Shown here: piece after piece, positions 1 to 36,789 of the stretch
Layout of the letters: every line of letters begins with the position of its first letter
How positions within the stretch are numbered: the stretch's first letter is position 1
From: Psammoneis japonica
Taxonomy: Eukaryota
Direction of reading: 5' to 3'
DNA: 64,000 nucleotides
NCBI GenBank assembly: GCA_008632985.1
Contig: QPGO01000070.1
Span: forward strand, 124,001 to 188,000
Translations under genes and position numbers: made by a program
Notes under the pieces: model-generated
The model's database searches: none
Seen by the model: the letters and a program-made list of their open reading frames with translations, nothing else
Told to the model about the DNA's origin: nothing

Positions 1-1440
1 CAAGCACATGTTTGGACTGACCCAGGATGGTGTGTCTTCCAGCAGGAAAGTGCAGTGGCCAATGAGACAAAAGAAGCGTTTTGCAGTGGTGCCACCAGAG
101 ACTGTTTTGTCATGGATCCAGGTGCACACTTTGATGCATGTCCACGAAACAAAAAATGAGTGTGGGGAGAGAAGAAGGAAACCAAAAAGTTAAACTCTGT
201 TCTCAGTGTCTGTCCGGGCTGGTTCTGGACTGTCCCCATTTTCATTTGCACAAGGGTGGTGGAGTTGTTGTGCTGATGAATTGGACTGATGGGGGGTGGA
301 ACAAGAGGAGTGTCAAAAAGGTTTGCCCGCAATTGTTTGGCAAACAAAGGTTGCGCAGCACATTGTGTGTGCCTGCTGCAACATTGGCAAGCAACAAACA
401 CAAAAAGCACAGCCATTGCTGTTGCCAACCCAACTGCAAGGCCATCCACAACAACTGCCCCATGTGGGGAGAGCCACAAGGATTCCATCACCAACTTTGT
501 GGAGTTGATGACCCAACACCACCATCGGTGCCCCACTTGCCAGTTTCACAAAACACCTGTGTCACAAAATGCACACACACACACACACACATGCATCAAG
601 GCTGAGAAAGTGCACACAAGCAAACTCCTGAGAAAAATCCAACACTGCACTGTGGCCTTCAGTCCACAAGGAATTGGTTGTTGTGTGCACAGTCAAGTCT
701 GCCAACAAATGGGCTGTTTCCCAAACCTTGCCATCTGGCCCATGCTTTCCAAACAAATTGCACAAATTTGCAAAATCACCAAACACAACAACTGCTGCAA
801 AAACACCAATGACAAGGTTTTGGTTTGTCCATTGATCCCACCACAATCAGGTTGGCACTGATTGCCATTTCATCTAATTTGCAGGCACAATGCAAAATGG
901 AAACTTGCGCCACATGCAATTTCTACATTGCCATTTTTCCACAATTGCCACCCAACCCCAACACTTGGCCTGGGCTCCCATGTGATTGTCTGATTTCTCC
1001 ATCAAATCTTGAGCACATCATTTTGTTTTATCTTTCATGACAGATGATTGCAGCGCCGTTGTGGCCCTTGAAAAGACATCATCCTTGTTGCCGTTGTTGT
1101 GGTCATTTCACAAAAATGTTCTAGAAAACCTGCCACATTTCTTGAAGATTGAGGCCAGAGCAAAACTGGCATTGTCACATTCCTTTGCATCATCATGAGA
1201 AAATGCACTGCCACCTCGCTCCATGATTGCAAGGAAAAAGATGAAACCATTGTGAGTCAGATGCACCGTGCAGGGGCCACCCTGCTCTCTTTTTCTGCAC
1301 AGAAGTTGAACAACATGATGCACCTTGGGATTGTCAGCTGAGGAGCATGACAAAAGTCTCTGTCCTGAAGTGCATTTCTGGACCCACTGCATGAGCCCAA
1401 TGCAAGAAAAGCAAAGGTGGTTGCAAGATGCTTCATTGTG
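1..1440. pseudogene. Degenerate, internally deleted copy of 2895-4530 (3' half of the lectin-like gene plus the convergent membrane-protein gene)
   Basis: Colinear similarity, e.g. 5-30 cacatgtttggactgacccaggatgg vs 2899 tacatgtttggactcacacaagacgg, and 1431 cttcattgtg vs 4521 cttcattgtg. Frameshifted, with TA and CG converted to TG/CA. Confidence 0.92.
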
Positions 1441-2463
1441 CAAGAAGGTGCTGCAGCCAGAAAGAGCTTGCGCTGTGGCAACATTGTCGGCTGCTCAGAT
1501 CTTGCCAACATGTTGCTGCCTCAGCAATTGAGCAATGCAAATGACAAGGCAAAGTGCCACAGTTTCCACAACCAAGAAAGTGCCCCCCACACAGGAGAGG
1601 AAACCAAACCAGAGCACACCAGCCTCTTCATCACAACATTGGAAAAAAAAGACCTTCTTCATGAAAAACATGGCAAGATGTGTCAAAGCACAATGTGCCA
1701 CTTTTGACATGAAATCAGGCTGGTTCATGGAGTCTGGTCAAGCCACGCATGCCACTCTTTCTTTGCCACATGATGAAAATTGTCAGCCATCGATGCTGGG
1801 GTGGGGCCAGTTTTGAGGCCGCTCTTGGTGGCGCACTGCAAAGTTGTCGCACAAAGTTGGTGCTCAAGCACACACACTTCTTGACCTCACTCACTGACAG
1901 CACCTTTGTGGCACTTCTTGAGTTGGCACTGTGCTGCATGCTTTGGGCAACTTTGGGAGAAAAAAATTGTTGCCCCCCGTCCGCAAGCTCAGAGCCCACT
2001 CTTTTGGGGGCACTGCGCCCGTTGTCGAGGAGGAGGCATTTCGCTGGTGTTTTCAAGCAACAGAAGTCAAGTGGACAATTCACACTCATCTGTACCATCT
2101 ACTGCCAGGTGTGGCATTGGCACTCCCTGCGGCCACTGGCACAGAAGTTTCAAGTCTCAGTCGAGAAGTTGTTCTTCACAGCTGCTCAGAAGATGACAGA
2201 TGATGAAAAGTTTTAGTCACATGAGTCGACGATTTGATGACGTGCAAATTTTCAAAATTCCAAAAATTGAAAAAAGGAAACGCGAAACGCGAACGCAGTG
2301 TTGATAGAGTTGACATCTTCTCCCTTCTCCCATGGCATCGCAGTCTTCTCTCACTTCTTCGTTGCTTCCTCTTATTACAAAGCGTATCCAACATAAACTT
2401 TACCATACGTAACAATATCAAGTAAGGAAGAAAAGCTTCCGCAAATCGCTCAAGTTTGAATAG

Positions 2464-3228
2464 ATGAAGAGTCTCGAGTACGAGTACACGAGTGTGGCAC
2501 CCTCAGCATCAAGCAATGATGGACCGCGTCAATATCCTCGGAGAAGACGTGTATTGATACAGCTCACTCGAAGGCAACGTCAGCTCTTGTATGTGATTGG
2601 TTTGATCCTTGTCGTGTGCATCTTGGTGGTGATTCAAAAGCGAAAAGCATCCTCCTCTTCTTCTTTGCCCTCGTCGGAACAGTCCAAAACCGCGGGCAGC
2701 AATAAGAACGACAACAACAACATAGCAACAACAACCGATGCTCCCACAGTTATTTTGCCTGCTACGCAAAAGCCTGCAAAACCTACTCCGTCACCGAAAC
2801 CAAAGCCAAAACCATCACAAAAGCCGTTTGAATGCCAGACAGATCGGCTCGGCCATGCGACACGATTGGAATCCGGTCACGCCATTTGCAACCACGAGTA
2901 CATGTTTGGACTCACACAAGACGGCGTGTTTCAGTGGAAAAACACAATAACCAACGAGACAAAAGTATTTTACAATGGTACCGCGGGAGACTATTTCGTC
3001 ATGGATCCAGATGCGTCCTTTAATGTATATCTACAAAACGAAACGCGTGTTTGGCGAGAAGAATGCAACCTAAACGTCAAATTCTATTCCCAGTGTCTAT
3101 CCAGGCCAGTCCTGGACTGTCCCTATCTTCATTTGCACAAGGGTGGAATTGTTGTACTGAATTGGATTGATGGGGGGTGGAACGCAAGGAATATCAAAAA
3201 GGTTTTCCCACAATTGTTTGGCAAATAA
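2464..3228 (+). CDS. Type II membrane protein with Pro/Lys-rich stalk and possible bulb-type (B-)lectin-like C-terminal domain
   Basis: 254-aa ORF with N-terminal TM (LLYVIGLILVVCILVVI), PKPKPKP linker and repeats FGLTQDG / FVMDPDASFNVY..VW / LHLHKGGIVVL resembling beta-prism lectin subdomains. The domain call is tentative. Confidence 0.7.
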   Translation: MKSLEYEYTSVAPSASSNDGPRQYPRRRRVLIQLTRRQRQLLYVIGLILVVCILVVIQKRKASSSSSLPSSEQSKTAGSNKNDNNNIATTTDAPTVILPATQKPAKPTPSPKPKPKPSQKPFECQTDRLGHATRLESGHAICNHEYMFGLTQDGVFQWKNTITNETKVFYNGTAGDYFVMDPDASFNVYLQNETRVWREECNLNVKFYSQCLSRPVLDCPYLHLHKGGIVVLNWIDGGWNARNIKKVFPQLFGK

Positions 3229-3299
3229 AGGTTGCACGGCACTGTGTATGCCTGTTTTGGCGAGTCAAACTGAGTTTACCCCGAGTATCCCTTTTAATT

Positions 3300-4526
3300 T
3301 TAGTAATTATCGTAATACAAGGATACTACAACATCTGCGATAAACACAAAAAGTGCAGTTATTGTTGCCAACCCGACCGCAATGCCGTCTGCGACAACTA
3401 CTCCATGTGCGTAGAGAGCCGCAAGGATGCCAGCACCAACTTTGCGGAGTTGACCCGACATTACCATCAACAACACACTTGCCAGTTCCACAGCGCCTAT
3501 CACAAGAAAAACACACATAAGGCTGAGAATATGCACGCAGGAAACTCGTAAGAATAATCCTGCATCACACGACGGCCCTCTTACCCGCAAGGAATTGCTT
3601 ATTTCGCACAGTCAAGTCTCCCAACAAATGGGTTCTTTCCCATACCGCATAATCTGGTCCATGCTTTCCAAATAAATTACACAAACTCGCAAAAACGCCA
3701 AACAAAACAAGTGCTACAGAAACGCCATCGACAAGCTGTGCATTCTCATAAAAGAACTTGACCACCGGTGGTTTTGGTTTATCCATCGATCCCGTCGTAA
3801 TGAGGTTGGTTACCTTTTCATCCAACTCGTAGGCACGTTGTAAAATCGAATCTTGTACCACTTGTAATTTCTCTCGTGCCATTTCTTCCACGCTCGCCGA
3901 TAGTTCCATGGCTCGTTGTCGTGCCACCTCTTCTGCCAGCGCTGCCTTTTGGAGTGCCATTTTTTGTATTTCGGACGTTGTGTTTTGTGCCGCGTTTTCC
4001 ACTTCTTGACGATAATCCAAAATTAACTTTTCCAAATTGGCCTGTTCGGCACGGGCGACCCGTAACGCTTGGGCCGCCATGCGATCGGCCGAATTTTCCA
4101 TCAAATCTCGAGCACGTTGTTTCGTTTCGTCCGTCATGACGACGGATGATTCCAATGCCGTTGTGGCTCTTGAAAAGACATTGTCATTGTTGTTGTTGCT
4201 CCGTTCTTTTTTGCGTGAAAATATTCTGGAAAACCTGCCGCGTTTCTCTGGTGTTGTTGGGGTTAGAGTAAAACTAGTATTGTCACGACGTTCCTTTGCC
4301 TCGCCGCGAGAAAATATGCCGCCACCTCTATGAATAGAAACAAAAGAAGAAAAAAAACGGTTTAGATTCACCAGAGAAAAATCAAACAGCTCTTTCTGCA
4401 CAGGATACTTAAAAACACGCACCTTGGGATTGTCAGGCGAGGAGCACGTCGAGAGTCTCCGTCCTGAAGCGCATTGCCACTGCATAAGTTTAACGTAAGA
4501 ATAAAGATGCATACAAGAGACTTCAT
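3300..4526 (-). CDS. Signal-peptide protein with coiled coil and C-terminal TM helices; predicted exons 4526-4423, 4327-3585, 3496-3300
   Basis: MKSLVCIFILTLNLCSG signal peptide. GT-AG introns of about 95 and 88 nt join the reading frames as IPR^GGG and FLAG^AVELASV. Confidence 0.75.
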
Positions 4527-5042
4527 TGTGTGTGTTGAAGTGCAATCAATATAACATAATAATATGATTAGCAAGGCCAACAAAAGTCAAACAATCAATG
4601 GGATTGCGATGATGTTGAAAAATAAAAAATGACAGGTGGAACGCACGCACGAACGCTGAAAATCATTCCCGCGTAAGATCCATTCCCGAACCGATGATTC
4701 ATTCGATCAAATAGGCCATATTGCCCTCTTTTTTGGATCTGCCTGCCAAGCAACATTACATTTATATAGATACGAGCTTATGCATATCATTTATATTTAG
4801 CGGGTATATACTTTATATATTGAGAAGGGCAATAATGTTTTTCCGTTGGAAATCAAATCTGAGTTGATCGTGTTTGTTTCGTTTTCGCGGTTGCTTGTGC
4901 GTGCGGCTTCCCATTTCTCGTTTTTCAAGTTAGTCGCAGCCGGAGTGAACCTGGTTATGCACAACAAAAGAGAAGGGATCTTTTCAACGATTGACTCTAT
5001 TTCAGTGCCCTGGTATTTACCTTTTTTTGCATTTGAAGCAAC

Positions 5043-7197
5043 ATGATGGAAACTAGCCCCGAAAATGGAACCGAAGCCACGAGCGGTGGAAGCTTTGATG
5101 ACATTGAGAGCAGCGGTAGAGTACCGCCGCGAGAGCTTCCCGTAGAGGGGGAGCACTCGCAAATGTCGGTGATTCCACCCGAAACCAAGAAGCGCAAATG
5201 GTTAATTGTTGGCCTAGTATTGGCCTTGGTGGTTTTGGTGGCGACCGTGATTGGACTGGCGGTGGGATTGTCAACGAACAATGGTGGAGGAAGCAGCGAG
5301 ACGGACAAGGCGACGCAAGGAAAGGGTGTTAGTACTCCTAGCCCAGCTCCTCCTCCTCCTCCTCCTGTGGATGAGACGAGACTCGGCGAGATCAAACAGT
5401 GGATTGTGGACAATCAGTACTCGACCGCTTCGTCTCTGGAAGATCCCAACAGTCCACAGAGTCAAGCGGCTCTATTCATGGAGACTGGTATTCTGGACGT
5501 GCCTACCGAAACTGTGTCGGCGTTTGCCATGGAATGGGTGGAGCGTTATGCCTTGGCCGTCTTTTTTTATGCCACGTCGGGCGATACCTGGAGAGGAAGG
5601 TTCAACTTTATGGATCAAAGTATCGGTAGTTGTCTTTGGTTCAATCTTGTCGAAGTATTACCGACTGTGTATTGGCCGTTTGGTGCCTATTGTGACCAGG
5701 GTCGTGTGCAACGCATCATTTTGCGTAAGTATAATACAATGTCCTTTTTGCTCGTGAATTTTCTTGGGAAAAAAGCTTACAACCATTGGCTACACTTGTT
5801 TTTCTCTGACTCGCAGCCAATAACAGACTTGCTGGTAGTCTTCCTTCAGAATTGGGTCTTTTGGAGGAATTGAAAATCTTGTTTGTTACTGTGAATCGGA
5901 ATTTAACTGGCGTGATTCCAGAAGAAATGCGTTCCTGTAAAAACATGGTCCTCTTTGAGGTGGATCGCTGTTCCATTACGGGAAGCATTCCCGAATGGAT
6001 GGGTGAGGAATGGACGGAGCTAGAGTCGCTTGCACTGACGGATAATCAAATGACTGGCACGCTTCCAACGACGCTGGCGGGTATGACCAAGTTGCGGCTT
6101 CTCTCCGTGGATGAAAACAAGTTCACTGGTGACTTGTCTGCTGTCGAAGCTATTACAAGTTTGGGATATTTGTACGCTGAAGAAAATAGCTTTGTACAAA
6201 CGATTGATGATACCTTTCTGAGTGGCCTGACCAATTTGAAGCAGTTGGATATCTCCGACAATGCTTTTGCGGGACAAGTTCCCGTTCATCTCATGTCCAA
6301 TCTTGCCGTGTTGGATGTGCATGATAACGAATTGACCGAATTCCCAGACTCAATTCCTGTCAATTCAACGCTTGAGTTCTTGGCAGTCCACAATAATTCC
6401 TTCACGGGCGCTTTTCCCAGATCCACCATTTTGAATTTGAAGGAGTTGGAGCATTTGGACTTGACCTCGACCAGCTTTACCGGAGATATGCCGACGGTTT
6501 TGGGAAATTTGACAAACCTCCGTTATCTATTCATGGCTGATACAGAGTTCGAGCCTGGTCCCATCCCGGACGAGTATCAGCGCTTGTTTGCGCTCAAGGA
6601 CTTGAGCCTGAAACATTCGAGGCGAAATGGTGTCATTCCAACCTGGATCGGTGATTTGGATCGGTTGGTCTTGCTCGATTTGCATTCTAATGATTTGAGT
6701 GGTCCCATACCGGGGGAGCAGATCGGGAACATGGGCAGCCTAGAATTTTTGCTCTTGAATCATAACAATTTCAACGGTACCATCTCGCCAGAGTTGGGTA
6801 TGGCGCTGTCTTTGCGTAAGTACTTAAGAAGGCAAGACTTGATTTGCGAGTTAAATTCTGAGACTCACCAAGCCCTTCTCTCTACCGCAATAACTTCTGC
6901 GGCACAGAACTCGTCTTATTGGATCACAACAACATCACAGGAAGCGTGGATCCCATTTGCGAGGAAGCTCAGAATCTAAATTTTGCAGCTGCTGATTGTG
7001 GAAGGGATGATCTTAATTGCACCTGCTGCGATGTGTGCTGCGGCGGAGACGCTGAGGAGCCATGCAATGATGGAGATTATTTGGCCCAGTATGATCCACA
7101 ATGGAAAGACACTTACAATCGACGAGGCATCTATGGGTTTGTGGATTTAAACATCACCCGCAGGCTTCTCATGGATGGGCGTCCTTGGAACATTTAA
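5043..7197 (+). CDS. Membrane-anchored leucine-rich-repeat protein (diatom LRR receptor-like family); exons about 5043-5724, 5817-6815, 6908-7197
   Basis: N-terminal TM, ERYALAVFFYATSG cap motif, many LxxLxLxxNxLtGxIP repeats, Cys-rich C-terminus (ADC..CTCCDVCC), gtaag donors at 5725 and 6816. Confidence 0.9.
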
Positions 7198-9849: not shown

Positions 9850-11720
9850 GAATATTGGTGGACATGCCGCATCGGCATATCTCCGCGACCAAAAAGCTCT
9901 AACAACAAGTTTCTTAAGAACAGGCAGAAATGAACAACTGCCATTGAGAAGACCGCTGGGGAAGTGGACAGGCGAACCCACTACGAATTGGTGGTTTTCG
10001 GAACGCTTCGACAGGTTGTACCGTCAGCTGGAAGGATATGTGGAGATGTACTCAAAAACTCAAAAACTCCCCAACGAAGAAGTAACAGAAGAGCCAGTTA
10101 CCAATTAAACGGAAAGGAGGACACTGTGCCGCGCGACGCCAAACCGACTCAGGTCACAAGGAGAGGGATTAAGATGAACCCTACAGGTACTTCGGAGGTA
10201 CTATGGACAGGAGACCCAGAGAGACCTCTGGACAATGTCGAATGGTCCTTTATCCCCTACGGACACCAACCGAATTTGGAAGCTCTTGTTTGAGGCATCG
10301 AAGCAGGCACATCGATTTGCGTAACGGACGGATCCTATAAGGATGGCTTAGCAACCGCAGGAATGATTCTTGTTCCGAGTGAGGGACACTCACACAGATA
10401 TCGTGGAGTTAATCAAACACCTGGAGCAGAGGATGATCTGACACCGTGCCGGGGAGAATTGGGAGGCACATTTGGCACAGTTGCATTTATTCTTCGTCTG
10501 TGTAGACAATTCAACATCAGCTCCGGAAAAGTGTCATTGGCTTGCGACTGTGACCTGGGACTTCGGACATGCTTCTACAATTCATGTGATCCAATCAGGG
10601 GAATGATTCAAGAATTGCCAGTGGTTGTGGAGGCGGCAGATGTAGAAGGACACAAGGACAAACACACTCCTCTCCAAGAGTTGTCTCACTTAGAACAACT
10701 GAACGTCGAAATGGATCTTTTAGCCAAGGCGCACTGGGAAGCACTCCGACAACACGACGACACTGCACCCTGCGAAATCAAGCAACCAACATGGTCGGTG
10801 CAGCTCCGAGGTAGGACCTTTACATCGTGGCGAGAGCAAAGTGTCCTGGATCACATGTGCGGACCCCCCGCAGAAGAGCACTGGCACAAGAAACTAAGAG
10901 CGGAACACTCTCCGGTGGAAATTGATTGGCAATCCCTTGGGAAAGCGATGAAACGCTGCCCCACCTTCAGACAACTCTGGCAACCTGAGTGGAGCGTGCT
11001 TTTTTGCTGGAAGAAGGTGGAGAGCCTGGCATGTCCAAGATGTGGGGAGGATGAAGAAGGCATTGATCACATGCTACGATGCAGGGCGTTTGCAGCTCAA
11101 GAACTGTGGAGGAAAAAGACATCCAACCTGGAAAAGTGGTTGACTGACAACCTCACACACAACCCGACATCCGGAAAGGCATGCTCAGCAGCATTGCGTC
11201 CTGGTGTGAAGACCTTCCCAGCCCCACCCCACGCTCGGATTACCCACACATGCAGGAAGCCTTCGAGGCACAAGAGAACCCAGGTGGAAGCTTGTCAGTC
11301 CGGGGTTTTTTGGCAAGTGAATGGGCTGCAGCACAACAAGCTCGCTGTGACTTCATCAGACGCAGGCACACAGGCGAAAGATGGGTGGCAGGCTCAATGC
11401 AACAGTTGTGGAACACAGCATGGGACATGTGGCAGCAACGCATGTGAGCGTCTGTGTCTCCTGCCTCTGAAGCACGACTCACCACACATGGCATTTTAGA
11501 TGGGGAGATTGAAGAAGAGCATGGTTTGTTCTTCAGTTGTCACTCGGATTCACCTCAGTGTGCCAGGTGGTTTGCAAGGACAATGGAGGAAGTGCAAGCA
11601 AAAGACGTTGACTTTAAATGACATTGGCTGCAGGCAGTGAGGGTGGGAAAATGCACTGCACTCTGTCCATCGACGGACCAATGTTCAGAGCAACAGTCTC
11701 AATCAAGAAGCACTCCACAA
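9850..11720 (+). mobile_element. 5'-truncated non-LTR retrotransposon: RNase H domain plus C-terminal CCHC zinc knuckle
   Basis: TDGSYKDG, RGELGG, CD, VEGHKD and LNVEMDLLAK RNase H motifs; CPRCGEDEEGIDHMLRC knuckle; stops and frameshifts. Ends are approximate. Confidence 0.85.
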
Positions 11721-12405
11721 CTCTGCACGCTGTTGCATTTGTTTTGCAGTTGACGCTCTGACTCCATTCCATGGTTGTTGATTGAAAGGAAAAATCAGGC
11801 GCAACTGAGCCTTGGGTGGCCACTGTGAGAAGCGGTGCAAATTTTTAGATTGAACTGAATTGAGTGCTTGACATGCCACCCACGTTCGCACAATGCAGGG
11901 TTGACATGACAGGCAACTCTCAAGCTCTGGGAGTGCTCTCGCCACTTCGGGACAATCACCATCCTCGAAAACTTCAATGCCCCACATGCAACAACACTGT
12001 CGATCCAACAAGTTGTTGACGGAAGCGACAAACTGAGGAGGCAAGCAAATTTCATTGTTGTTTGTGTTGTTCATGTTGGCAATGGAATTTTCAGAGCCAG
12101 CTTCTTGTTGTTTTGGCTTTGCTTCCGCAGTGACGGGATTTGCTTTCGCAGCAACAATGGAAACGTTGTTCTTGGCATTGCTCAGACTTGCTTCCAAGAT
12201 TGCCCCAACATTTCAATTGATTTCCTGAGAAGTTGACATTTGAGTGTGGAAGGGCAGACAGACTGACAACAATTGTTTCTGGCTGAGTGCTCTTCCACAC
12301 AACATCCATGCATTGACTCTGACAGCCGCAATGATTCCTGTTGACCACAGGTGTTGATGGCATCCAAAAGCACTCAGCCCCCACTTCTTTTGCACAGTGC
12401 ATGGC

Positions 12406-12802
12406 GACGCGTTCCAGCCCCAGGTGGGAGCTCGCAGCACTGACGTGTGACAACAACAACTTTTGTCATCTGTCGCATGTTTCGCACGTAGATTTCCATG
12501 TGTGACATTTAAAAAAAAATTGTCCAGACTCGCTGTTTTGCGAAGCCCCAGACGTTTTATGTGACAAATTTATAGAAACAACAATGCGCCAGTTACATTC
12601 TTCAATGTCTGAAGAATGTAACTGGCTGAGTAAAAAATGATGTGCTTCAATCATGTGCGAGTTTGTGCGTTCGCAAAATTGCCTCATTTTCTGTTGGCGA
12701 TCATTGACATTTTAATTGCCATGTGATTTTGCTGCGGAGCTCGCACGTAGAAGTCTACGGGCCCAATGTCACACGGATTCCCACCTGCATCTGGAACGCG
12801 TC
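12406..12802. mobile_element. MITE, about 397 bp, TIR GACGCGTTCCAG, 4-bp TSD TGGC
   Basis: tggc|gacgcgttccagccccaggtggga ... tcccacctgcatctggaacgcgtc|tggc, with an internal 17-bp perfect hairpin at 12588-12626. Confidence 0.85.
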
Positions 12803-12867
12803 TGGCACACCATGCACAACCTTTGGAGTGGTTTGCAAATTGTGCCCAAGACATTTCATTTGGTGAA

Positions 12868-13871
12868 GACGCGTTCCAGGTCCAGGTGGGTGGGACCTCG
12901 CACCACTGAACTGTGACATCGACAGTTTCATTGACCACTCAGTGGTTGGTGATTGCAGACTTTTTCGTGTCGGTCCGGCAGTCGGGCAGTCGGGGGGTCG
13001 GGCAGTCGGGGGGTCGGGCAGTCGGGTTGTCCGTCTGAATTTGAAAGTGTGTCCCTAGGATTTTAGAACGGGATGGGTTGTTTGGCACAGATGAATTCTT
13101 CGGATTCACAGAATGATCATTGAGGACATGAGAGGTCGTGGGGACATCCTTAAAAATCGACAAATTCCCTACGACGGGTGCGTGGCACGGTTTTTCAGGA
13201 GAGCTCGAAAGTGCTGTAAAATTGGGATTGCCGGCGTGGCATGTTCAAAAATGCACTCAGTTGTGAACAAAGACAATTGATCGTGAATTCTACATGAAAC
13301 AGTCACACTTGGGAAAACATGTCGAACAACAAGTGAGTTTGTGCGATGCGCCATTGTGGCGATAAATTGGAAAAAAAGAGTGTCTGTGCACCTCGCTGCA
13401 GCCCCAAAAAATGGCATGAGACATCAAACACAACGGTCATCCGTGTCACCGGTGCGGTGGCCACGCCACTCAGCCGCCACAACACCGGCCCCGGCGGCAG
13501 GGCCCTGCGTACGTACAGACAACACAGCATGCAACGGCACACACCCACCCACAAAAGCGAAAGACAAGTGGTCAATGCTCCCCGCAGGCCTGGTTTTGAA
13601 TCGCGTCGTATGTCGCGCACGTGCATTTCTACGTGATTTTGGCAAAATTTTGTATGATTTTATAGTGCAATTATCAGTCGATCCATTGAACAACTTTTAA
13701 TGTTTTTTTCTTCTGCGCCATTCTCGAGTGTCTTAAGAATGGCGTAGGGCAGGCGCATCATCCAAAACTTCGAGTACGAACAGGGACAGATGTGCCACAA
13801 ACTTGGCCGTTTTTTTTATGTCAAAGATAAATGTGTCCATTGACCAGAGTACGAACTACAGAGCTCGCACG
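12868..13871. mobile_element. Second MITE-family copy, split by a nested insertion at 12929-13577 (11-bp TIR cattgaccact/agtggtcaatg)
   Basis: Starts gacgcgttccagg. 12868-12928 plus 13593-13871 is colinear with the reverse complement of 46990-47324. Confidence 0.75.
12970..13027 (+). repeat. G-rich short tandem repeat (GTCGGGCA/GTCGGGGG units)
   Basis: gtcgggcagtcggggggtcgggcagtcggggggtcgggcagtcggg. Confidence 0.85.
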
Positions 13872-14959
13872 TTGTCAGTTGTCCTGCTGCAAACAGGACA
13901 GTCTTTGGTTTCATGGCTGAGTCAGTTGTCAAGAACATGGAAGTTGGTCAATTTTTGCTCCTTTTTCGATGCAGAATTCTGCACCAGTGCACGGTGTGTG
14001 CCGTGCACCAGCTGACACTCTTCAATCACTCCCAAAGAAATGCCACACGAGACTTCACATGACAAAGACAGAGATTGACGACACTGATTCAACACTTGAC
14101 ACTCTGTGTGAGGAACAAAGGATGATCACAAGGCTGCATCATTTGTGATGACTCCTCAAGTTGGGGAGTCATTTGGTGATTCAATGAACAGTTTCCTCCT
14201 GAATGTGTGTTTTGCATTCAATGGAAATGTGAGTCTAAAATCACACAAGAAAATCATGCTTTTGTGTGGGCATGAGTCTCCCACTCAATTGGCCCGTCTC
14301 ATCAATGACTGTGCCCATGAGCTGTCACATGCTTTGTTGTTGTCTCTTGTTGCTCTGCACATGCAGCAGACATTGTTTCTTCATCTCAGATGATTCATCA
14401 TTTAGGATGTGGACACCACCAGCCTCCTTGTTCATTCCCCTGAATGTTGGCAAAAACTGGCAGGCAATGGATGGACCAAAATGTGTGGAGCTGCATGCAG
14501 ATGACCAATTTCGGTGACAACTTTGCCCCTGTTTAATTTCTGTCAAAACAGTTGCCTTCCACAGCCATGGGCTGTTCTGCAGGATCAATCAGGTTCTGAC
14601 CCTGCTGTTTGACACTGGTGGCATGACCCCACATCCACATGTCTGATGTGTCCACCGCCCAAGCCAAACAATGTTGTTTTGCATTAATTTGGACATGCTT
14701 CAATGCAAAATTGATCTTCTAAGAAACATGTCTTTGAACAATGACTGCATGCTTTGTGTGCACACAATGTCAAAATTAAATGCAAAATGCAGTCATTTGC
14801 AGTCACTTGGGAGGAAACAGTCAAGTGGAATTTTACGTGGAACATGCCACTGGCATTTGCCTGCACATTTTCTGTGTTGTTCTTGGAATCTGGCTGCACA
14901 CCCTGGACCCAAATCAACCACAGAAAAGTGAGACAGGAAGGTTGTGTCATGAGATGCTT

Positions 14960-15730
14960 GACGATGAGCTCCAGCTCTGGGTGGGATCTCACACTGCTGA
15001 GCTGACGTGTCCAGCTCTGGGTGGGACCTTGCACTGCTGCTGAACTGTGGCATGGACAGTTTTTTGGATCGTGCTGCATGTCGCATGTCGCACACATGGA
15101 AAGGTGCATGACTTTGTGAAATTTTGGGTCATTTTGTGGCACACTTGTTGAGTGATCAATCCAACAACTTTTGACATTTTTTGTTGCAGTGCAAGTCTGT
15201 GATGTCTTAAAAATTGTGCAGGCACACAATTGCACCACAAACTTGGTTGTTTGTTTGATGTTGAAGACAAATGTGACCATTGATTAAATTCTTGCACTGC
15301 GGAGCTTGCACACAGATTTCTGTGGGCCCAATGTCACATGGAGTCCCACCCAGGACTGGAACCCATCAACTGTGACATCAACAGTTTTTTGGGTTGCACC
15401 GCATGTCGCACACACAGGCAGCAGCTGCACAACTTTGGTGGTGGAATTTTGCATCATTTTTTGCAGCACAATTGTTGGGCTGTCCATTCAACAACTTTTG
15501 ACATTTTTTCTTCTGCGCCACTCTGAAATGTCTTAAGAATGGTGCAGGGCAGGTGCTTTTTCAAAAACTTTGAGTGTGGACAGGTGCATGTGCACTGCAA
15601 ACTTGGTCGTTTGTTTGACGTTGAAGACAAATGTGTCCATCTGTTAAATTCTCGCACTGCGCAGCTTGCATGCAGAGTTCTGCGGGCCCAATGTCATCAC
15701 ATGGAGTCCCACCCAGGACTGGAACCCATC
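14960..15730. mobile_element. Two tandem, heavily mutated copies of the same MITE family
   Basis: Left end gacgtgtccagctctgggtgggac at 15004. Right ends cccacccaggactggaacccatc at about 15367 and 15730. Shared internal aaacttgg..tttgtttga.gttgaagacaaatgtg. Confidence 0.75.
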
Positions 15731-15806
15731 TGACATGTTTTGATTCATTCTTGTGCTTCAAGTTGGTGATTCGGGCGAGTGGCAAAAATTGGCAAAAATG
15801 GGCAAA

Positions 15807-15950
15807 GCATGGCGCCAGCCGTGCACCAGCACAATGGACCATTTTGCGCGGAAGATGACAGATGGAAAATCTGAAAAACAGCATGGCCAGCCATGCATCA
15901 GCATGATGGACCATTTTGTGTGGAAGATGACAGATGGAAAATCTGAAAAA
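15807..15950 (+). repeat. Two-copy tandem repeat of about 72 bp
   Basis: atggaccattttgYgYggaagatgacagatggaaaatctgaaaaa occurs twice. Confidence 0.85.
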
Positions 15951-16558
15951 TGGGATGTGCAGGAGATTTCCACCGTGCTTCTCCCTTGTGATTCAACACT
16001 TGTGATGGCGAGCGACAATCAGACACTGCGAAGCCGCAAAGCACATGTGCCAAAGCTGTCTGCCATCAAACAAAGTTCTGGAAAAGCCTTTTCCTTTCAA
16101 CAAGTGCCATTGAACACCATTGCTCATCTTCACAAGCACAGCGTTTTCTCTCGAGACGGGAAATCGTGGTGCAAATTTTATGCAGAAATTGCGCAGAAAG
16201 GAAGGGATGTGTCAGAACTCAATGAACGGGCCAAGATGACACACATCAGTGGCTAGAACTTGTCTTTAGCACGTAAAGAGCACATGGCATGTTCGTATGA
16301 CTTGCTCGGAATGTGTTGGGGGGCGGCAGTAGGAGACACTGAATTACACGTGGCTTGGGCGGGGAAATCTTTACTTTCGTGCATCCCATTTCGTCTGGCC
16401 ATCTTCCGTGTAAATTGGTCTATTTTCAACGGAAGCGGGGTTTTAGCTCACGCGCAATGCGGTAAGGCTAATGCAAAAATGCAATAAATTCGCAACAAGC
16501 ATCGGCAACAACAGAACACCATTCGAATCAGTTCACGCACAATAATTGTGTACGCCAT

Positions 16559-17849: not shown

Positions 17850-19010
17850 GTCATCGTGAGAACTCATGCGCTCATTCTTGCAAAGTAGAGTCTTGCTCAT
17901 TGGAAAGGTTTGCAATGGTTGCATTTTGGTGATTGCTTTTCTTGACATGGAACAGACTCTGACTTCCACAGTGTCCATGTGTGGTGAACATGTCAAACAC
18001 AGAGAGTGGGGTTGTCATCGGTGCGGTGGTGTGCTTGACGACTCTGGTGTCATCATCGACATGCTCCACAGCCACAGATGTTGACCAGTCTGCTTCATTT
18101 GGATCATTGTCCATGAATTGAACCCAATTGCGAGGATCAATCTCAAGGAGAGAATGTGTTGGGTTCTCCAAAATGAGGCCTGTTCAATTCTCATTGAGAG
18201 TGAAAACACAATGTTCAGATTCAAGTTCATCAAGTTGCTTGGTGTCACAAAGGCTGGTGTTGAAATGTTCAGATGCGGTTTTCAATTTTCATTGGTTTAC
18301 AAAAGATTGTGGCATCATTGCTTGCTTGTGAGAAATGAGCCAGAGTTGTGTGTGACAGGCAGGCCAACTTGGAGCCAGTGGTCATCTGCGTGCCTGGAAG
18401 GGCGCTGTGACACCTTTGATCACATCATCAAGGACTTGATTGACAGTGCTGCCCACCACATGTTTGTCTGATGAGATTTGATTGAACACCAACTCTTCAA
18501 GCACTCATGGCTTGGTGGAAAGCGGGAAGTTGACCCATTTTTCCATGTTGTGCTGGTGAAGCGAATGTTGTAGAAACGCACATGAGAAAAAACAGCAAAC
18601 ATCATCAAAATGCACGCAACAAGGAGATTGGCTTGGCAAAAGAGGCCCATGCTTTTGTGATGCCCTTTGTGATTTCATTGAAGCACAAGGGATTGAATTT
18701 ATGAAGAGAAAGAGCTCAACAACGTTTTTCATGAGACCAAAGCAGAGCGGGTGTGCTGATGCCAGCATTTCTGGCAAATTTCTTGCAGCGCTGCTCCCCC
18801 TTTCCACATCTGGTCATGAGCAGCACCATGCCATGTGCCTTGGAAAAGGCTGCATGGAAACATCAGTTCCCTGTCAAGGATGTTTCCAGTGCCGCTGCAG
18901 GACTTCAGGGAGAGCACTCAACAAGCCGGCATTTTTCGGCATCTTCTTTAAAATCTGATCTTGGCTGGTGTCACAACACTTGGAAACTTCGGCGTGCTTT
19001 GTGAAAACTA
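17850..19010. other. TA/CG-depleted degenerate block, probable TE or gene remnant
   Basis: Near absence of TA, with Cys/His-rich junk ORFs. Confidence 0.6.
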
Positions 19011-27323: not shown

Positions 27324-29937
27324 ATGGCAATGAACGCAACCCGTTTAGTCCGCTCGAGACTAACAAGAATTGCCGTGCTGGCCTTGTTTCCGATCTTGAA
27401 CCAGTTCTTTGTATGCGTCTTTCTGCTCGATCCATCACTGGAACAACATGCACATCATTTTCTGTCTCGTTGGAACTTTTATGAAAAAAAAGTTCCTTGG
27501 TTACAACGACCACGAACCATGTATGTAGAAGGCATGCCAATACGGCATGCTACTGCCAAACATCGAACGATTGATTCAGAAGAGTCAAAGAAACAAATAC
27601 AGTACGCCATTCCGACCGCACTTTGTGGGAACGAAGAGGAGGATTGTTTTGTCCCCGGAAGGTGGCAAGAAACCAACAATATGACGTGCAATTATCTTCA
27701 TGAAGTTGATTTACTGAATGCCAACGACCTCAACATTATCGGCAAGGGGGGCAAACGATTGGTGCTTTCCAAGGAAGATGTAAACGGCACAGCAATAGCT
27801 CTAAAATTGTTCAAGTTTCGAGCGGATCGCGACGACGATTTTGGACCCATGACGATTGAATTGCAGCGGCGTGATGCCTTGGTGCACGAACAATTGTCGT
27901 CGTCGCCGTACATTGTCGACCTTTATGGGTATTGTGGTACGTCTGCCATTTACGCCTTTGGCGACGGTGGTCAGTTGGGAGAAAACATTGAACGAGACGG
28001 ACCGATCCGAAAAGCGGAAGTGTTGCAACTGCGCATCAAATAGCTGCATCTGTGGCGGATTTGCATCATCCAGATGACGAGACGGGTCAACCCACTATTA
28101 TCCATTCGGATATTCACGGTGAACAATGGATCAAGGTGAATGGCAAGTACCAGTTGACTGATTTCAATCTTGCAAAGCTTGTAAAGCGATCTAAAACAAC
28201 AAATAAGAATATGCCGATTCGACGAGATGTGGTTGATAATGTGAGTGACTTTGCTGTACAAAGTGATATGTTATCTCTTACTTTGCGATCCTGACCGTTC
28301 TTCTTCGTATCCATTCTTTTTCCCAGTGGTTCTCTCCGGAGGTACACCTTCAACAGTACCATGCCGAAAATATTGGAACAGAAAAGATGGACGTTTGGAA
28401 CATGGGCAACATCCTTTACTTGATTCTAGTGGGCACTCCACCCTTTGACGGTCTGGGTCGCCAAGAGGGACATGCCTTGATAAAAGAGCACGAGCGTCCC
28501 GAAATTCCATCACAACTACGCAACAGCAAGGGTTTTGTAGTTCAAACCATGATTTTCGTGATCGACTGGTGCCTTCAAGAAGACCAAACCAAACGACCAT
28601 CTGCTCGCGAGGTTGCGGACTATTTGCGTACATCTATCAAGGTCCCCTTTGACTACAGAAGGGAAGCCTTCAACCGACCGAGACGTTTTCCGTCCGTTGA
28701 GGAGAGGGTCAAACGATACATGTCCAATTGGTATGTTCCACCTTGCGACTCTACTGCAACAATACAATATCAAATGTTGCACAGCGACGAAGACCAGCGG
28801 CCACGCGTATTGGTGAGAGAACTTGCCACGAATTACAAGCGTACCCATATTGTCGAAATTGACTCGGAGGTACAACAAGACACCATCATGATGGTGAACC
28901 CAACAATCTTGTCAAACGACAAGAAGGTTCCACACGCAGGCTACCAAGCCGATGTCATCCAGACCGCCTTGCCACTCTTGGATTCGTTGCAGGACAAACC
29001 ACTCTTGATGCAGTGGGGTGACCGAGTGTCGCTGCACTTGGATGAAGCAGAACCGTACGATTCGACACTTGCCATTCCCCACATGAAAAAGTGCCGGCCC
29101 ATCATTTCCAAAGTAGAACTCGAACGCATGACAGCAGCCACGTGTTATAGAGCAAACGACCGTCCACAGTCTAACACCGTTTATCGTCCTGGAGCTACAC
29201 ACGAACCTATTCTGTGGAAATTGGATAGTCATCGACTTATGGGTCCCATTGCTGATGCGATCGTTGCGGATAAGCCCTGGAGCGAGAAGCAAGCAAAAGC
29301 TGTCTTTCGAGGAAAGCTTACGGGACACGCCATGGATGCCAAACGCAACAAGCTCTTTGCGAAAGGCCCAATGAATAATGAAGAATATTGCAATGCCATT
29401 GAGCGCTGCCGTTTCGTTCTCGCGCATCACGATTCAAGTCTAATTGATGCGCGCCTCACGGATTTGCTCGGCAAGCCTCTGGATCCAAACATGATTGGCG
29501 TCGACTTGTTGGGTGAAAAGATGGAGCTCTACGAGTTGCTGGACTACAAAGTAATCATTATTCTGGAAGGCAATGATGTTGCGTCGGGTCTGCGTTGGGC
29601 CCTTCGGAGCGAATCGGTCGTCATGATGCCACCGCCAACCTTTTCGTCATGGGTTATGGAAGAGTTACTCGAACCATGGGTGCATTACATTCCATTGATA
29701 GATCCCAATTTCAATGATGTGGAGGAAAAGATGCAGTGGGTCTTGGCGAATGATGCAGAGGCGCAGCGAATCGCCCACCGTGGAAGTTTATGGATCAAAG
29801 ATCTTTTGGAGCACCCCGATTCAGAACGAGATAGTATGGAGATCAACAAGCAAATACTGGAGCGCTACCAGAAGCTCCTGGAACCCTCGGATCAGCTTGA
29901 GTCAATGATTGACGACTCCTCCGATCAATTTTTCTAG
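27324..29937 (+). CDS. Protein-kinase-like domain fused to a glycosyltransferase family 90 (CAP10/KDELC-like) domain; frameshift near 28032, intron 28241-28326
   Basis: Kinase motifs IGKGGKR, ALK, HSDI, LTDFN, SPE, DVWNMG and RPSA run in frame into the GT90 motifs PWSEKQAKAVFRGKLTG, LEGNDVASGLRW and LEPWVHYIP. Confidence 0.85.
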
Positions 29938-30139: not shown

Positions 30140-31760
30140 GAGATGTTTGATTCGGATGCTGTTGTGGCCCACTTTGCATGGAATTGCCATGTAAGAAGAT
30201 GGAGATTGTGGCTGTTTTCTGTTCTGTTGACTCAAAGCTCCTGATGATTGCCATCATCCTTCTGTGTGGAAACTTGCAAAACACACCAAAGTCAGGTCGC
30301 TCCAAGGGGGGCTTTGCAACAAAGAAGGCTGTCGCAGCCAAAGAAACAGAGAAAGGGGGTGGGGGGGTTGGATCCTCATGGCATGCCGTGAAGCAGTGCT
30401 GGCTGCTCCTTCAATTCCTCCCAGAGTGCAGAAGCACCCCTTTGCACCCATGCCAACATTGAAAGGTGTTGGCAGGAAAGCAGAACCTTTGCCTGCTTGG
30501 TGTGTGGGAGATGTGATGACTGCCTCTGCTCAAACATGAGCTGCCAGTCCACCATGTGTGGCAAAGACCTTGAGTGCACCAAGAAGCTGGACAAACATGT
30601 TGCACTGACAACAACAAGCTGTGGTGCAGCACCAAGTGTTGAGGCACTCTGTTGTTGGCTGTTCATGCTGTCTGGAAGTGGCGCTGCATGCTGTGCAGTG
30701 CACATGGTTTTTTTGACATGACAAAACAAAAAAAGAGCAAGCAACACCTCAACTTTGTTGGGAGTGTCATCATCATCACCTTCTGACTTGCCTCTTTTCA
30801 ATTGAGGAGGACAACAGCACAGCAGCGGAAAGGGCCACAATTGGAGCTCAAAAAGCTCTGCTTGCAATGACAAATCTCATGACAAACAAAACTCTCTTGA
30901 ACCATCTGTTGTGCTGGCATCATTGTTGGGCAGGCTTAAATGAGAATCTGCCCATTTCTTGAGTGTGAGTGTCTGACGCGCACTTTGTGAATTGTTGACA
31001 GTCCAAGCACAGCAGCACTCGCTGCCATTGGAGTCAATGGCAGATGATCTTTTGATGCTGCAGAGTTCAGCCACAAAGCAACAACAGAGCCCAGTGGCAG
31101 AGTGGGGTAAAAAGCAGAGTTTTTGGAAACTCTGCTGTCAGCGCATCTTGCGACATTGTCAAGAGACGGAAATCACAGCTTGGCTGTGCTGAGAGAATGT
31201 TTTGGGCTGCACTGTCTCTGAGTGAGCATCAGCTCAGAGAGCCTCTACAAGCTGCTTCATTCTTGATTTTATGGCAACATTTTGTGCCAGCATGTTTGGG
31301 CACTTTCAGAGCCAAACAGACTTTTCATGACAAAAAGCACCACACAAAGTTGTCTGTCAAAAGTCAAAAGTGTGCCCAGAGTCTGCTGCAAGCAAAGTGC
31401 TGGTTCTCATCCTGACTCTGGAGGCTGTTGCTGGTGCCAACATTTCCAGTCCAGAAAGGCAGCAAGCATCTAACTAAAGCAGATGTCTGATGCTGGCTTC
31501 ACACTGCCAAGCGAAGCCCATTGTTGTGTTCTGTCTCAAAAATGAGTGTGGGGAGTGACTTCAAAAGTCACGCAAGTTGAGGTGACACTGGCAGTTGAGA
31601 GTGTGCAGCAACTGCATGTTTTCTTCAACACTCTCAGACCCTTCGGGGTTTTGCACCATGGCAAAATTGTTTTCCTGCTGTTTGTGCAGGATGTGATGGA
31701 CAAGAAAGATCTCGATGGTGTTGTTTGTGTTTTTTTAGATGACATCATCAGGTTATTGTT
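30140..31760. other. TA/CG-depleted degenerate block
   Basis: Abrupt loss of TA and CG relative to the flanks. No intact ORF. Confidence 0.6.
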
Positions 31761-33827: not shown

Positions 33828-34913
33828 TATTATTGTGTTGAAAGAAACGTAAACTTTTGTTTCCAGAAAAAATGAATGGACACAGTGAAGAAAAAACTTG
33901 AGGTTGAAGGTGACAAGAATGGCAAAGGCTTTCAATGTAGTACGGTAGCAACAACTTCAGGATGAAAGTGAGACCGCAGTGTGACACGTGACGCGATGCG
34001 TGATGGTGAGATGCGTGACAGCGAAGATCTTTCAGCGATCGGCAGGGATTTGCATCATAAAATTTCTTCGTTAATTAAAATTATTTTGAACATGCCGGTT
34101 TGACTAGAGCAACCACCCAGAGCAGATTGCAAGATGACCGATTGCAAGGTCTTTGATGCAGGCTTCGATGTCTGAGACTTGGACAGATAAAATTCAGGCA
34201 ATGTCATGTCAAACATTGCCTTGTTCATGACTTGAACTGCGTTGTGAAGGCTTTTCACTTAAAAGCAGAAATTAGAAGCTTGAGAAATGACAAGAATTTT
34301 TTCAAGTGCTTTGCATGATTTGATGCAGCTCTGGTTGGCTCCACAATTGAGGAGGCCAAGCAGTTGCTCTGCATGTGAGGCAGAGGCAAGTCACACTTGC
34401 ACATCTGTGCTGATGCTTTCTTGAGATTCTTGAGCATTCTGACATTCAATTTCTCATTGATTTTGTCATGGATTTTTTGCAAATCTCTCCAACGGGCCAT
34501 CTGGGACGCCAACAATCTGGGTCTGACCGTCCGCCACAATCTGGGCATTTCTTGACTTTAATGCCAGATTGTTGTCAACTTGTGAGCCAATTCTCTCCTT
34601 GAACACAATGTGAGAACTGCACAAGTTTACAAGCTTCTAAAACCCAAATCGCTTCTCACTTTTAAGCATGGTCATTCTTTTCACACAATGCTGACCTGCG
34701 CCCCAATTGACATTTGCTGTTTCTCGTTCTTTTAACACAAATGTTGCTGCTTGCAATCCACCCTCATTTTCTCCCAACTCATCCTACATTTTATCTCTTT
34801 GCCATGTCTTTTCAAATCCAAATTCCCAATTGCCACACGTTCCTGCATCCAAACCGCATTTCAGAATGTTTTTTTTTATTTTCGCTTGTCCAGATTTTGT
34901 TGTTTGTTTCAAA

Positions 34914-36044
34914 TTACGTTTGCACACCAGTTTGGTTGGTGGCCATTGTGGCATTTGCTGCCGCTCTGTTGCCTGCAGCCACCACCTGCAATGGCAGGTC
35001 CTCTCCCATCGGCGCCGCCCATCCTTCCTCTCTCTCCTTTCTTTTTTCCTCTCTCTTGCGTTTCTTGTTTTCCTCCTGAGACAAGTTCGTCTTCTCTTGC
35101 CTTCTCTCCTTGAACCATGCACAGAATCCCTGGTTGTTCTCTCTGTCTTTCACCACCCACTGATGCAGATCATTGTGCTTCTTGATCCCCTCCTTGCTCC
35201 ATCCTTGGTGCCTCTTTGCCGATTCCCCCGCCACCTGCACTGTGCACTTTGCAGGAGCAGCGTCTTTCACAGTTGGCTTTCTTCTCCTTGCAACATTTTC
35301 TTCCTTTTCCAATTTCTCTGCCGTGTCCTTCACCTTGTTGCAGTGGTTCAAGTGCGCTGGCAGAGCAAACGCCTCTGACAAAATGGAAAGCCACTCCTGA
35401 AGCATGTCGGTTGTGCTTCTGCCAAACTGCGCTTGTCCCACCACCGTCGGCACCACAGTTTCCAAGAACCATGTGCATGTGTCCTTGTCATTTCTTCCCT
35501 TTGTCAAATCTTTGCAATCCACCAGCGATCCCTCTAAAGCAGCAACTGCACAGACAAAAGCAAAGGAAGCGACACTCATCCCGTTGGACAATCGCCTCCA
35601 ACACAATCAACGGCACGCACACATCTGCTCACCTGTCATTCTCCTCCCAATGTTGTCCTGCACATTGTTCCTCTTTCAGTTGAGTTTGGTCCTGAACACC
35701 TCTTTGCACTCTCCCCAGAATGCCTCCGGTGAAGACGCCATGCTCCTCAACTCCTGCAGAACCAACTTCATGTGATCTCCTCCTGCAGCGAGTTCATGAT
35801 CGAAGATTGTGAACTTGCGACATGGCCAAACACTCTCATTGACAACCTTTGTCAACATTGATGCTGTCAATTTCTCGCCCACTGCCGGTGCATGATCCAA
35901 CACAAGACATCCCTCTGTGGGAGTCACCACCGAACTTGAATCCCCACCTGCACACTGGAATCTGTTCAATTCCCCATGTTCGTTTCTTTGTGCATGCAAC
36001 AAGGCCACCACCGCAGGACTCATGGTGACTTCATGTGACACCAC
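34914..36044 (-). pseudogene. Degenerate TE-associated ORF (SEAFAL...KxT...GWSKEGI...VxxDR type)
   Basis: The motif order is recognisable in ORF 34914-35606, with presumed Tyr codons read as Cys/His. Confidence 0.5.
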
Positions 36045-36789
36045 ACAGACAAATCCAAGAACTCTGTCAGTTCATCAGCCACTCTTTGTCATGTCCTTTC
36101 TCAACCTCACTCACCGCTGGAAGTTGCACTTCCTCCCTCCGTCACTCCTGTGAGAACTGCACCCTCCATCTTTTTTACCTTCCCAATGGCTTCCTCTTGT
36201 TTGGAACTTCCGTCCTTTCCTGTCGCTTTGTGAAAGGCAAGTTGCGAAACGAACGCACTTTGCATGTGATTTTCTCGGTTTTGTTGTTGCTCGCGTGTCC
36301 TCTCTTGATTCAAACAGGTCTTTGTGTCATTTTTGAGTGCTCATTCCCAACCCCATGTTTGAATTTCTGTCAACGTTCCACTGTTTTGAATTGTGCGCCT
36401 TTGTTGGCCAATCCAGTGCACCAATGAAGATTGCAACATCATTTGGATCAATGCCAAACAACACATTGTATCTCCTTGTGTTGGTGCATGCATTGCGCCT
36501 GCTTCCTGATGCAACATCTGTTTCATTTGGTTTGTCAAGTCGTGTCAAACCTCCTGTTTGTTTGTGCAAATCCATGTCGCTCATTGTCTCATGTTAATTT
36601 GTCCCTGTCTTGACAGGTCATTCTCTCCACTTCCCCGACACCACATCTCTCCAATTGCTCTCTCCATTGCCCAAATTATCCAATCCACTTTCAATGGCTG
36701 CCAAAGGGTGTCATTGTCACTGAGACATGGCTGTTGTGAGTCGTTCCCGTTGTGGGAATGCGCGTTCCCTCCATTGCAATCACGTGCCA

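Follow-up and report, generated by a model that had tools for sequence, protein, structure and literature searches.

Repeat-induced point mutation (RIP) of fungi converts CpA to TpA, which creates TA and lowers the GC content, and neither copy of a duplication escapes it. Relatives of the RIP factor RID, the DNMT4 enzymes, are present in diatoms (PMC9998398). A different kind of change has been reported for the alga Bigelowiella natans (Mettrop et al., bioRxiv 2026, 10.64898/2026.01.13.699255). Mutation-accumulation lines yielded 302 single-nucleotide mutations in the nucleus, of which 231 mapped to two regions of integrated viral DNA; of these 231, all but one (230) were A>G or T>C changes, without exception at TpA. 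The rate was around 6e-7 per site per generation, about 1000 times that of the genome, and only some of the lines were affected. The genome of B. natans contains 124 clusters that are poor in TpA and rich in CpA+TpG. As the agent the authors suggest a DNA adenine deaminase resembling ADAT2; the only natural enzyme cited there as deaminating chromosomal DNA in vivo is the ADAT2 of amphioxus (10.64898/2026.01.13.699255). Here we describe a stretch of 64,000 bp from the diatom Psammoneis japonica (GenBank assembly GCA_008632985.1, contig QPGO01000070.1, positions 124,001 to 188,000 of the forward strand; hereafter the window), in which a dead gene duplicate and a series of further blocks are almost devoid of TA dinucleotides. 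An earlier note on this DNA had proposed that a mutator acts at TpA on both strands of the duplicate.

The duplicate and its intact parent

Positions 1 to 1440 of the window read as a pseudogenised tandem direct copy of the 3′ end of one gene (gene A) and most of a second (gene B). The features of this part of the window are as follows.

2464 to 3228, plus strand: intact gene A, an open reading frame (ORF) of 254 aa with an N-terminal membrane anchor, a Cys-rich domain and the invariant motif DCPYLHLH
3565 to 4545, minus strand: intact gene B, convergent with gene A; 326 aa from TTG, 315 aa from ATG
3 to 375, plus strand: decayed copy of the last (3′) third of gene A (parent 2897-3254)
396 to 1440, minus strand: degenerate copy of gene B (parents 3342-3891 and 4067-4530) that has lost internal segments and gained a (CA)n run at about 562-601
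1441 to 2205, no strand: hypermutated DNA with no parent detectable in the window by nucleotide search and whole-window self-comparison

The dead copy covers two convergent genes and the spacer between them, collinear with the parent. Three collinear blocks were found by blastn, 3-375 against 2897-3254 (77% identity), 396-942 against 3342-3891 (69%) and 968-1440 against 4067-4530 (69%). In a purine/pyrimidine alphabet the identities rise to 92%, 86% and 86%, thus the differences between the dead and the intact copy are mostly transitions. Relative to its parent (2897-4530) the dead copy also shows deletions, small insertions and the (CA)n run, which lacks a parent counterpart. The stop of gene A is changed from TAA to CAA and the codon of the invariant Tyr221 from TAT to CAT. 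We note that the parent has a short ACACACA run at the place of the microsatellite (562-601 of the duplicate); enrichment in CA/TG may act as a seed of (CA)n-type repeats.

Neither the gene A nor the gene B protein matched any family in a Pfam search. A protein search located 21 homologues of gene A, with identities of 34-50%. Besides DCPYLHLH this family without a Pfam match (proteins P0001-P0021) has invariant W197, C124, C142, C211 and C219, and the domain is doubled in three homologues (P0001-P0003). For the DNA at 1441-2205 no parent was found when 1-2300 was searched at the nucleotide level against the remainder of the window, nor in the self-comparison of the whole window, and a purine/pyrimidine blast (plus versus plus only) gave nothing above the 92 bits of the reversed-sequence control.

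Substitutions were counted over 1177 reliably aligned columns, with the intact copy as reference. None of its 47 TA dinucleotides is kept in the dead copy; 39 have become TG (22) or CA (17), a near symmetry which agrees with the claim that both strands are affected. A single CG of 58 is kept, while 24 have become CA and 23 TG (47/58). The steps TG and CA are themselves largely retained (56/72 and 78/97, respectively). Flips to the opposite form are seen in 12 of these 169 steps, as expected from cycling through short-lived TA or CG. CA changed to TA in only 2 of 97 cases, against 0 of 47 TA kept; the direction is thus the reverse of that of fungal RIP, as the earlier note had held. Transitions are observed at 46 of 93 bases in TA compared to 52 of 482 other A/T (Fisher p 5e-16), and at 49 of 114 bases in CG compared to 36 of 363 other G/C (Fisher p 7e-14). 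These per-base rates at TA and CG amount to around one change per dinucleotide. Elsewhere in the alignment the background is about 0.10 transitions and 0.04 transversions per site. At the background rate the probability of at least 39 of the 47 TA being changed is 7e-20, and the TA transition rate exceeds the background transition rate more than 17-fold, which is a lower bound. The non-coding spacer of the intact copy (3229-3564) contains 21 TA and its dead copy contains none. The adjacent intact copy, about 700 bp away, has indeed been spared and retains its 47 TA, those of the spacer included. Over 2895-3229 we reproduced the count of the earlier note exactly (17 TA giving 10 TG, 5 CA, 1 CG and 1 AA); the accompanying change of CG to TG or CA is found at 10 of 14 CG in this segment.

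The polarity of these changes was determined with 21 protein outgroups of gene A at the 14 codons in which a change in TA context alters the residue. Among the 290 outgroup residues at these codons, 119 agree with the intact copy and 5 with the duplicate. At Tyr146, 170, 177, 189, 208 and 221, which are replaced by His or Cys in the duplicate, the residue of the duplicate occurs in none of the outgroups. Since the outgroup residues side with the intact copy, TA is ancestral and TG/CA derived. The outgroup check that the earlier note had called for thereby gives TA and CG as the ancestral states.

The note had also asked for a check in reads. Read-derived contigs of the public run X1 cover 1-982, 985-1636 and 1607-2372 and contain the TA-free sequence, with 9 differences in total. 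Their depth over 1-2372 is 56-64, compared to 55.9 for the neighbouring genes; the third record (1607-2372) spans the border at 2205 beyond which TA is normal. Overlaps of 30 bases, typical of k=31 unitigs, are observed between the contigs. An artefact of assembly or polishing is thus unlikely, the X1 contigs excluding it, yet X1 is possibly the assembly's own sample. The 8 listed differences between the assembly and X1 in 1-2372 are all G>A or C>T (window to contig) and several restore the base of the parent. They look like a second haplotype of the dead copy, around 0.4% apart.

TA-free blocks and the flank rule

A two-state hidden Markov model (HMM) segmentation over pyrimidine-purine (YR) steps identified 11 TA-free blocks, which occupy 24,643 of 64,000 bp (38% of the window). 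They are listed here without strand.

1 to 2205: TA-free, CG-poor block with the dead duplicate; 7 TA, 27 CG, 236 TG, 276 CA; TA observed/expected 0.047, CG 0.21
10916 to 12472: TA-free block; 5 TA, 44 CG
12764 to 12957: short TA-free block of 194 bp; 0 TA, 7 CG, 22 TG, 24 CA; TA observed/expected 0.0, CG 0.535
13873 to 16140: TA-free block with mutated copies of a repeat that is unmutated at about 13254-13871; 11 TA, 34 CG
17894 to 18923: TA-free block, its end 281 bp upstream of a CRAL_TRIO gene; 3 TA, 16 CG
30157 to 31729: TA-free block, its start 220 bp past the stop of the ORF at 28387-29937; 7 TA, 15 CG
34110 to 46009: largest TA-free block, 11.9 kb, with a PhyH remnant and one arm of an inverted duplication; 64 TA, 299 CG, 1268 TG, 1250 CA
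46543 to 47081: TA-free block of 539 bp between a TA-rich island (46012-46541) and normal DNA (47084-47276); 2 TA, 7 CG, 64 TG, 50 CA
47278 to 49703: TA-free block with the second arm of the inverted duplication (HMM segmentation and self-comparison)
55903 to 56089: short HMM call of 187 bp inside an MFS gene, which may be false
57351 to 58114: TA-free block, its start 320 bp upstream of the MFS transporter gene (minus strand); 2 TA, 21 CG

In the ten blocks scored (the questionable 187-bp call at 55903-56089 was left out) the observed/expected ratio is 0.0-0.08 for TA and 0.16-0.54 for CG; the loss of TA is more complete and more uniform across blocks than that of CG. In affected 1-kb windows the ratio is 0.02-0.18 for TA and 1.46-2.21 for TG or CA. 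The borders are steps, sharp within about 40 bp, and sit 220-320 bp from the ends of neighbouring ORFs. The first block stops 259 bp upstream of the ATG of intact gene A and reaches 765 bp past the end of homology at 1440. The block at 46543-47081 (TA observed/expected 0.052, CG 0.247) has a left border that is likewise sharp within about 40 bp. In normal segments the ratios are 0.53-0.88 for TA and 0.65-1.47 for CG, as measured in two introns, in three spacers and at the codon 3|1 junctions. As these introns, spacers and junctions are undepleted, the process is regional and not a genome-wide bias masked by selection. Two introns of an LRR gene (5725-5816 and 6816-6907) were confirmed by GT..AG joints of 92 bases in run X2, and from these two clean joints we take X2 to be RNA-derived. 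Run X2 covers 2306-4167 and nothing on 1-2136, a gap from which we draw no conclusion.

In run X1 the contig depths add up to 17,000-96,000 at 12283-13884 and 14953-16000, compared to about 56 for single-copy DNA, and reveal a very high-copy non-coding repeat. TA and CG are at normal levels in the repeat copy at about 12474-13871, and the related copies at 15000-15760 and 46900-47083 are TA-free. Between 13254-13871 and 15000-15760, 14 of 17 TA are changed to TG or CA, a count to be read with caution as the alignment is only 54% identical. A third repeat pair, at 48% identity, was discarded, its alignment not being credible. Because the first block outruns the homology by 765 bp and the high-copy repeat stays normal, the targeting unit looks like a domain and not a repeat. 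The earlier note had called the mutator 'repeat- or heterochromatin-directed'. The first half of this description is not borne out, since the block outruns the duplicate and the high-copy repeat is normal; the second half is plausible, and 'silent-domain-directed' fits the data better than 'repeat-directed'.

The two arms of the inverted duplication (43635-45791 and 47324-49479) are 93-94% identical and differ by 124 transitions and 7 transversions. The YR steps hold 101 of the 124 transitions, corresponding to 9.2% of YR sites compared to 2.2% elsewhere. Discordant sites comprise 26 CA-versus-TG, 34 CG-versus-TG/CA and 13 TA-versus-TG/CA. The 26 CA-versus-TG sites compare with about 12 expected from cycling through TA or CG, a small margin as to an unmutated state at the time of duplication. 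Since these young copies diverge mainly at YR steps, the process continued after duplication. The arms belong to a large palindrome-like set of inverted and direct duplicates at 42288-49479 (90-93% identity, with tandem units of 180-190 bp). At its centre sits an AT-rich, TA-rich island of 530 bp (46012-46541; GC 0.35, 50 TA) with knife-sharp borders to the TA-free DNA.

The few TA that survive in the blocks are not a random sample: 57 of 113 have the form YTAR, compared to 269 of 1638 in normal DNA, and 4 of 113 the form RTAY, compared to 476 of 1638 (chi-square 95, p 2e-20). The ratio of the densities in hypermutated and normal DNA was tabulated for each 4-mer.

ATAC: 0.007
ATAT: 0.013
GTAC: 0.027
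ATAG: 0.027
ATAA: 0.059
CTAC: 0.10
CTAG: 0.11
GTAA: 0.19
CTAA: 0.25
TTAA: 0.63

RTAY is erased 40- to 140-fold and first, TTAA last, being almost spared. The ten ratios fit an additive per-strand model in which the base 3′ of the target A is weighted roughly as follows: T 2.2, C 1.8, G 1.1, A 0.2. Independent evidence comes from the polarised alignment: with a 3′ pyrimidine the ratio TG:CA is 17:6, with a 3′ purine CA:TG is 11:5 (p 0.011). In the preferred reading the per-strand target is 5′-T-A-N, with T and C about equally favoured, G less so and A strongly disfavoured.

Turning to the content of the blocks, 58 stop-free frames of at least 120 aa were scanned against Pfam, with no accepted match to a viral or transposon domain. 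A rhabdovirus glycoprotein domain (E 0.005, 18 bits, below the cut-off of 22) was taken as chance. Besides the PhyH remnant given next, the only other matches were sub-threshold ones to zinc-finger/RING and DUF7385 at 40467-41150 (minus strand). The largest block holds a remnant of a PhyH/2OG-Fe(II) oxygenase at 37644-38159 (minus strand; Pfam E 2.5e-07; 100 homologues, best E 1e-17), which is, judged from these matches, a second host-type gene buried in TA-free DNA. As a replicate of the polarity test it offers little, since the identity of the 24 homologues aligned lies at only 26-37% and Tyr is conserved in just one column. Over six frames TA-free DNA contains 121 TAA and 45 TAG compared to 1133 TGA, and because TAA and TAG are so scarce it is rich in long, overlapping false ORFs. 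An ORF of 378 aa (10363-11499) straddles the border between normal and TA-free DNA at 10916. The nearest named homologues of the CRAL_TRIO protein of the window come from Seminavis robusta (58%) and a Bacillariaceae MAG (metagenome-assembled genome; 54%). The genes of the window are eukaryotic, and its source was taken for a raphid pennate diatom. The assembly has a gap of 352 N at 60661-61012.

Proposed mechanism and alternative explanations

At the level of the process, the observations are probably explained by regional, TpA-specific mutation of DNA. The dead copy would lie in a silent DNA domain (1-2205), and such domains may well be methylated or heterochromatic. Within silent domains the DNA itself would be subject to two kinds of transition, each tied to its own sequence context. 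One would be ordinary methyl-CpG decay, converting CG to TG/CA. The other would be a TpA-specific A:T to G:C hypermutation that turns TA into TG or CA on either strand and halts once the TA is destroyed. Per site, the latter would outpace other transitions at least 17-fold, within sharp borders that spare genes and about 200-300 bp of their flanks. To judge by analogy, it is plausibly of one kind with the hypermutation at TpA in B. natans.

For the chemistry, adenine rather than thymine is presumably the base attacked. The leading candidate, which we advance tentatively, is a TadA/ADAT2-like deaminase that would be recruited to silent chromatin and convert adenine to hypoxanthine there; adenine deamination is suggested because it fits both the type of transition and the 5′ T. 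The original adenine base editor reportedly prefers YAC. A variant of TadA edits DNA at the A of YAC (PMC13109818), and the contexts tabulated in a review are 5′ACG for TadA/ADAT2 and 5′UAG for ADARs (PMC10661471). TadA/ADAT2 turn A into I, which is read as G; in their natural target, A34, the neighbours are U33 on the 5′ side and C35 on the 3′ side. The 3′ order found in the diatom, T, C > G >> A, resembles the TadA type more than that of ADAR, without matching it fully. With greater reserve we put forward that diatoms and chlorarachniophytes might share an old, chromatin-targeted DNA-editing defence, which would erase TpA by the rule 5′-TA(T/C>G>>A) and so kill silent DNA, host duplicates and viruses alike.

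Several observations weigh against this account. No mutation event was witnessed, and the process is read from one assembly and the reads of one sample. Two separate processes for the loss of TA and of CG have to be assumed. The high-copy repeat at about 12474-13871 is unmutated between blocks, so either it is young or the targeting does not follow copy number. In environmental relatives that carry the gene A family (11 loci, about 72 kb) no 500-bp window had a TA observed/expected ratio below 0.2, a result of little weight as the contigs are short and gene-rich. The proven targets in B. natans are viral, whereas the proven target in the diatom consists of host gene copies and no viral domain was found in the blocks. 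B. natans is reported without an excess of GC to AT changes, with CpG unmentioned in the text, whereas CpG in the diatom is as saturated as TA (47/58). Finally, TAT is erased like TAC in the diatom, which departs from the strict ACG context of TadA.

The attack could instead fall on thymine, a TET/JBP-type oxygenase or other activity making 5-hydroxymethyl- or 5-formyluracil in 5′-R-T-A, which would pair with G and yield T to C. As TA is palindromic, A to G and T to C on opposite strands are indistinguishable by sequence. The flank rule can moreover be read as R-T-A over Y-T-A: in the polarised alignment T became C in GTA at 19/25 (0.76) and in ATA at 17/31 (0.55), compared to 3/12 (0.25) in CTA and 7/25 (0.28) in TTA. 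It is known that 5-formyluracil mispairs with G, and the hydroxymethyluracil of dinoflagellates is enriched at TpA. To our knowledge no thymine-modifying enzyme or modified base is known in diatoms. Given also that the authors of the B. natans study favour adenine deamination (10.64898/2026.01.13.699255), we consider attack on thymine unlikely. Biased mismatch repair of the Vsr type is a little more improbable: a T:G glycosylase guarding methylated DNA would turn T:G replication errors at TpA into C:G. This would yield transitions only and would tie the loss of TA to the domains that lose CpG, as is seen. In Escherichia coli CTAG is depleted through Vsr, and TpA is the second-best context of thymine DNA glycosylase. 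The supply of misincorporations would however cap the rate, and the depletion of CG (0.16-0.54) and of TA (0.0-0.08) is not proportional across blocks. The rate of about 6e-7 per site per generation in only some lines of B. natans looks, in addition, induced (10.64898/2026.01.13.699255).

A genome-wide neutral bias, with selection preserving TA and CG in functional DNA, would make the blocks old unconstrained DNA at equilibrium; indeed they occupy intergenic space and stop 220-320 bp short of ORF ends. The undepleted introns, spacers and codon 3|1 junctions make this very improbable, as do the non-coding spacer with 21 TA in the parent and none in the copy, the step-like borders and the normal TA of the non-coding high-copy repeat. 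We give hardly any credence to an artefact in which modified bases are miscalled, for example 6-methyladenine (6mA) as G or 5-methylcytosine (5mC) as T. Such miscalls exist in nanopore data, but the X1 contigs, possibly from the same sample as the assembly, have the same letters apart from the 9 differences and the depth of neighbouring genes, and indels, about 4% transversions and the microsatellite insertion mark the copy as a truly diverged paralogue. Hyper-editing of double-stranded transcripts by an ADAR-like enzyme, with the edited copy then reverse-transcribed and inserted, has a next to negligible chance. The hallmark of ADARs is A to G change at sites with a preferred 5′ U (PMC10661471; 10.64898/2026.01.13.699255). 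The copy nevertheless spans two convergent genes and their spacer in collinear order, the TA-free state continues 765 bp past the homology, and the inverted copies go on diverging in place. The 3′ preference is moreover for T and C over G, not for the G of ADARs (PMC10661471), and CG is lost from the same DNA.

If such a shared DNA-editing defence exists, its erasure of TpA would do away with promoters of the TATA type, AATAAA signals and Tyr codons, as well as with two of the three stop codons, and the defence would be saturated over about one third of this region in the diatom. TA-free blocks in which TTAA is spared would then provide a genomic marker for mapping the process across eukaryotes and for an enzyme hunt by phylogenetic profiling. 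The flank rule is a constraint that any candidate enzyme must reproduce. A process of this kind is able to reshape a large share of a genome, and it matters for annotation, as TA-free DNA yields long false ORFs. Transformable diatom model species exist, and should the footprint occur in any of these, direct tests of the enzyme and of its targeting become possible.

Comparison with known systems

RIP and the process described here both inactivate duplicated or silent DNA irreversibly by dense, context-specific transitions on both strands. The diatom process differs in that it eliminates TA while GC remains near 0.48, and in that the parent copy is untouched (47 TA, 58 CG and an open, conserved frame). 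The unit in the diatom is also a domain and not a repeat. Methyl-CpG decay, as in vertebrates, plants and diatoms, likewise converts CG to TG/CA in only part of a mosaic genome. It cannot, however, remove TA, the loss of which is here more complete and more uniform than that of CG.

The earlier note knew of no such process in diatoms, and the literature on TpA or TpG/CpA bias, hypermutation and RIP in diatoms gave no description of one. A TA-removing mutator had previously been reported only in one 2026 preprint on one rhizarian alga, B. natans (10.64898/2026.01.13.699255), so that TpA-specific hypermutation of silent DNA is no longer without precedent. B. natans is a chlorarachniophyte, whereas P. 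japonica is a stramenopile. The mutations of B. natans were seen de novo and those of the diatom are known from their footprint alone. The nucleocytoplasmic large DNA virus (NCLDV) target in B. natans is transcriptionally silent, and the diatom blocks are probably silent too. In the best-studied target of B. natans TpA is half depleted (rho 0.45), compared to 0.0-0.08 over 38% of the window in the diatom. The rule TAT, TAC > TAG >> TAA comes from the diatom; the main text of the preprint mentions neither flanking bases nor CpG nor diatoms.

The two systems otherwise agree closely. In both, A to G or T to C changes at TpA yield TpG/CpA on both strands, confined to regions in which the rate is far above that of the rest of the genome (more than 17-fold over background transitions in the diatom). 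In both, TpA-poor, CpA+TpG-rich clusters, mostly unannotated, make up the long-term footprint. The footprint in the diatom indicates that the process is not peculiar to one species or to viral inserts, and it is the first sign of a TpA-erasing process in a stramenopile.

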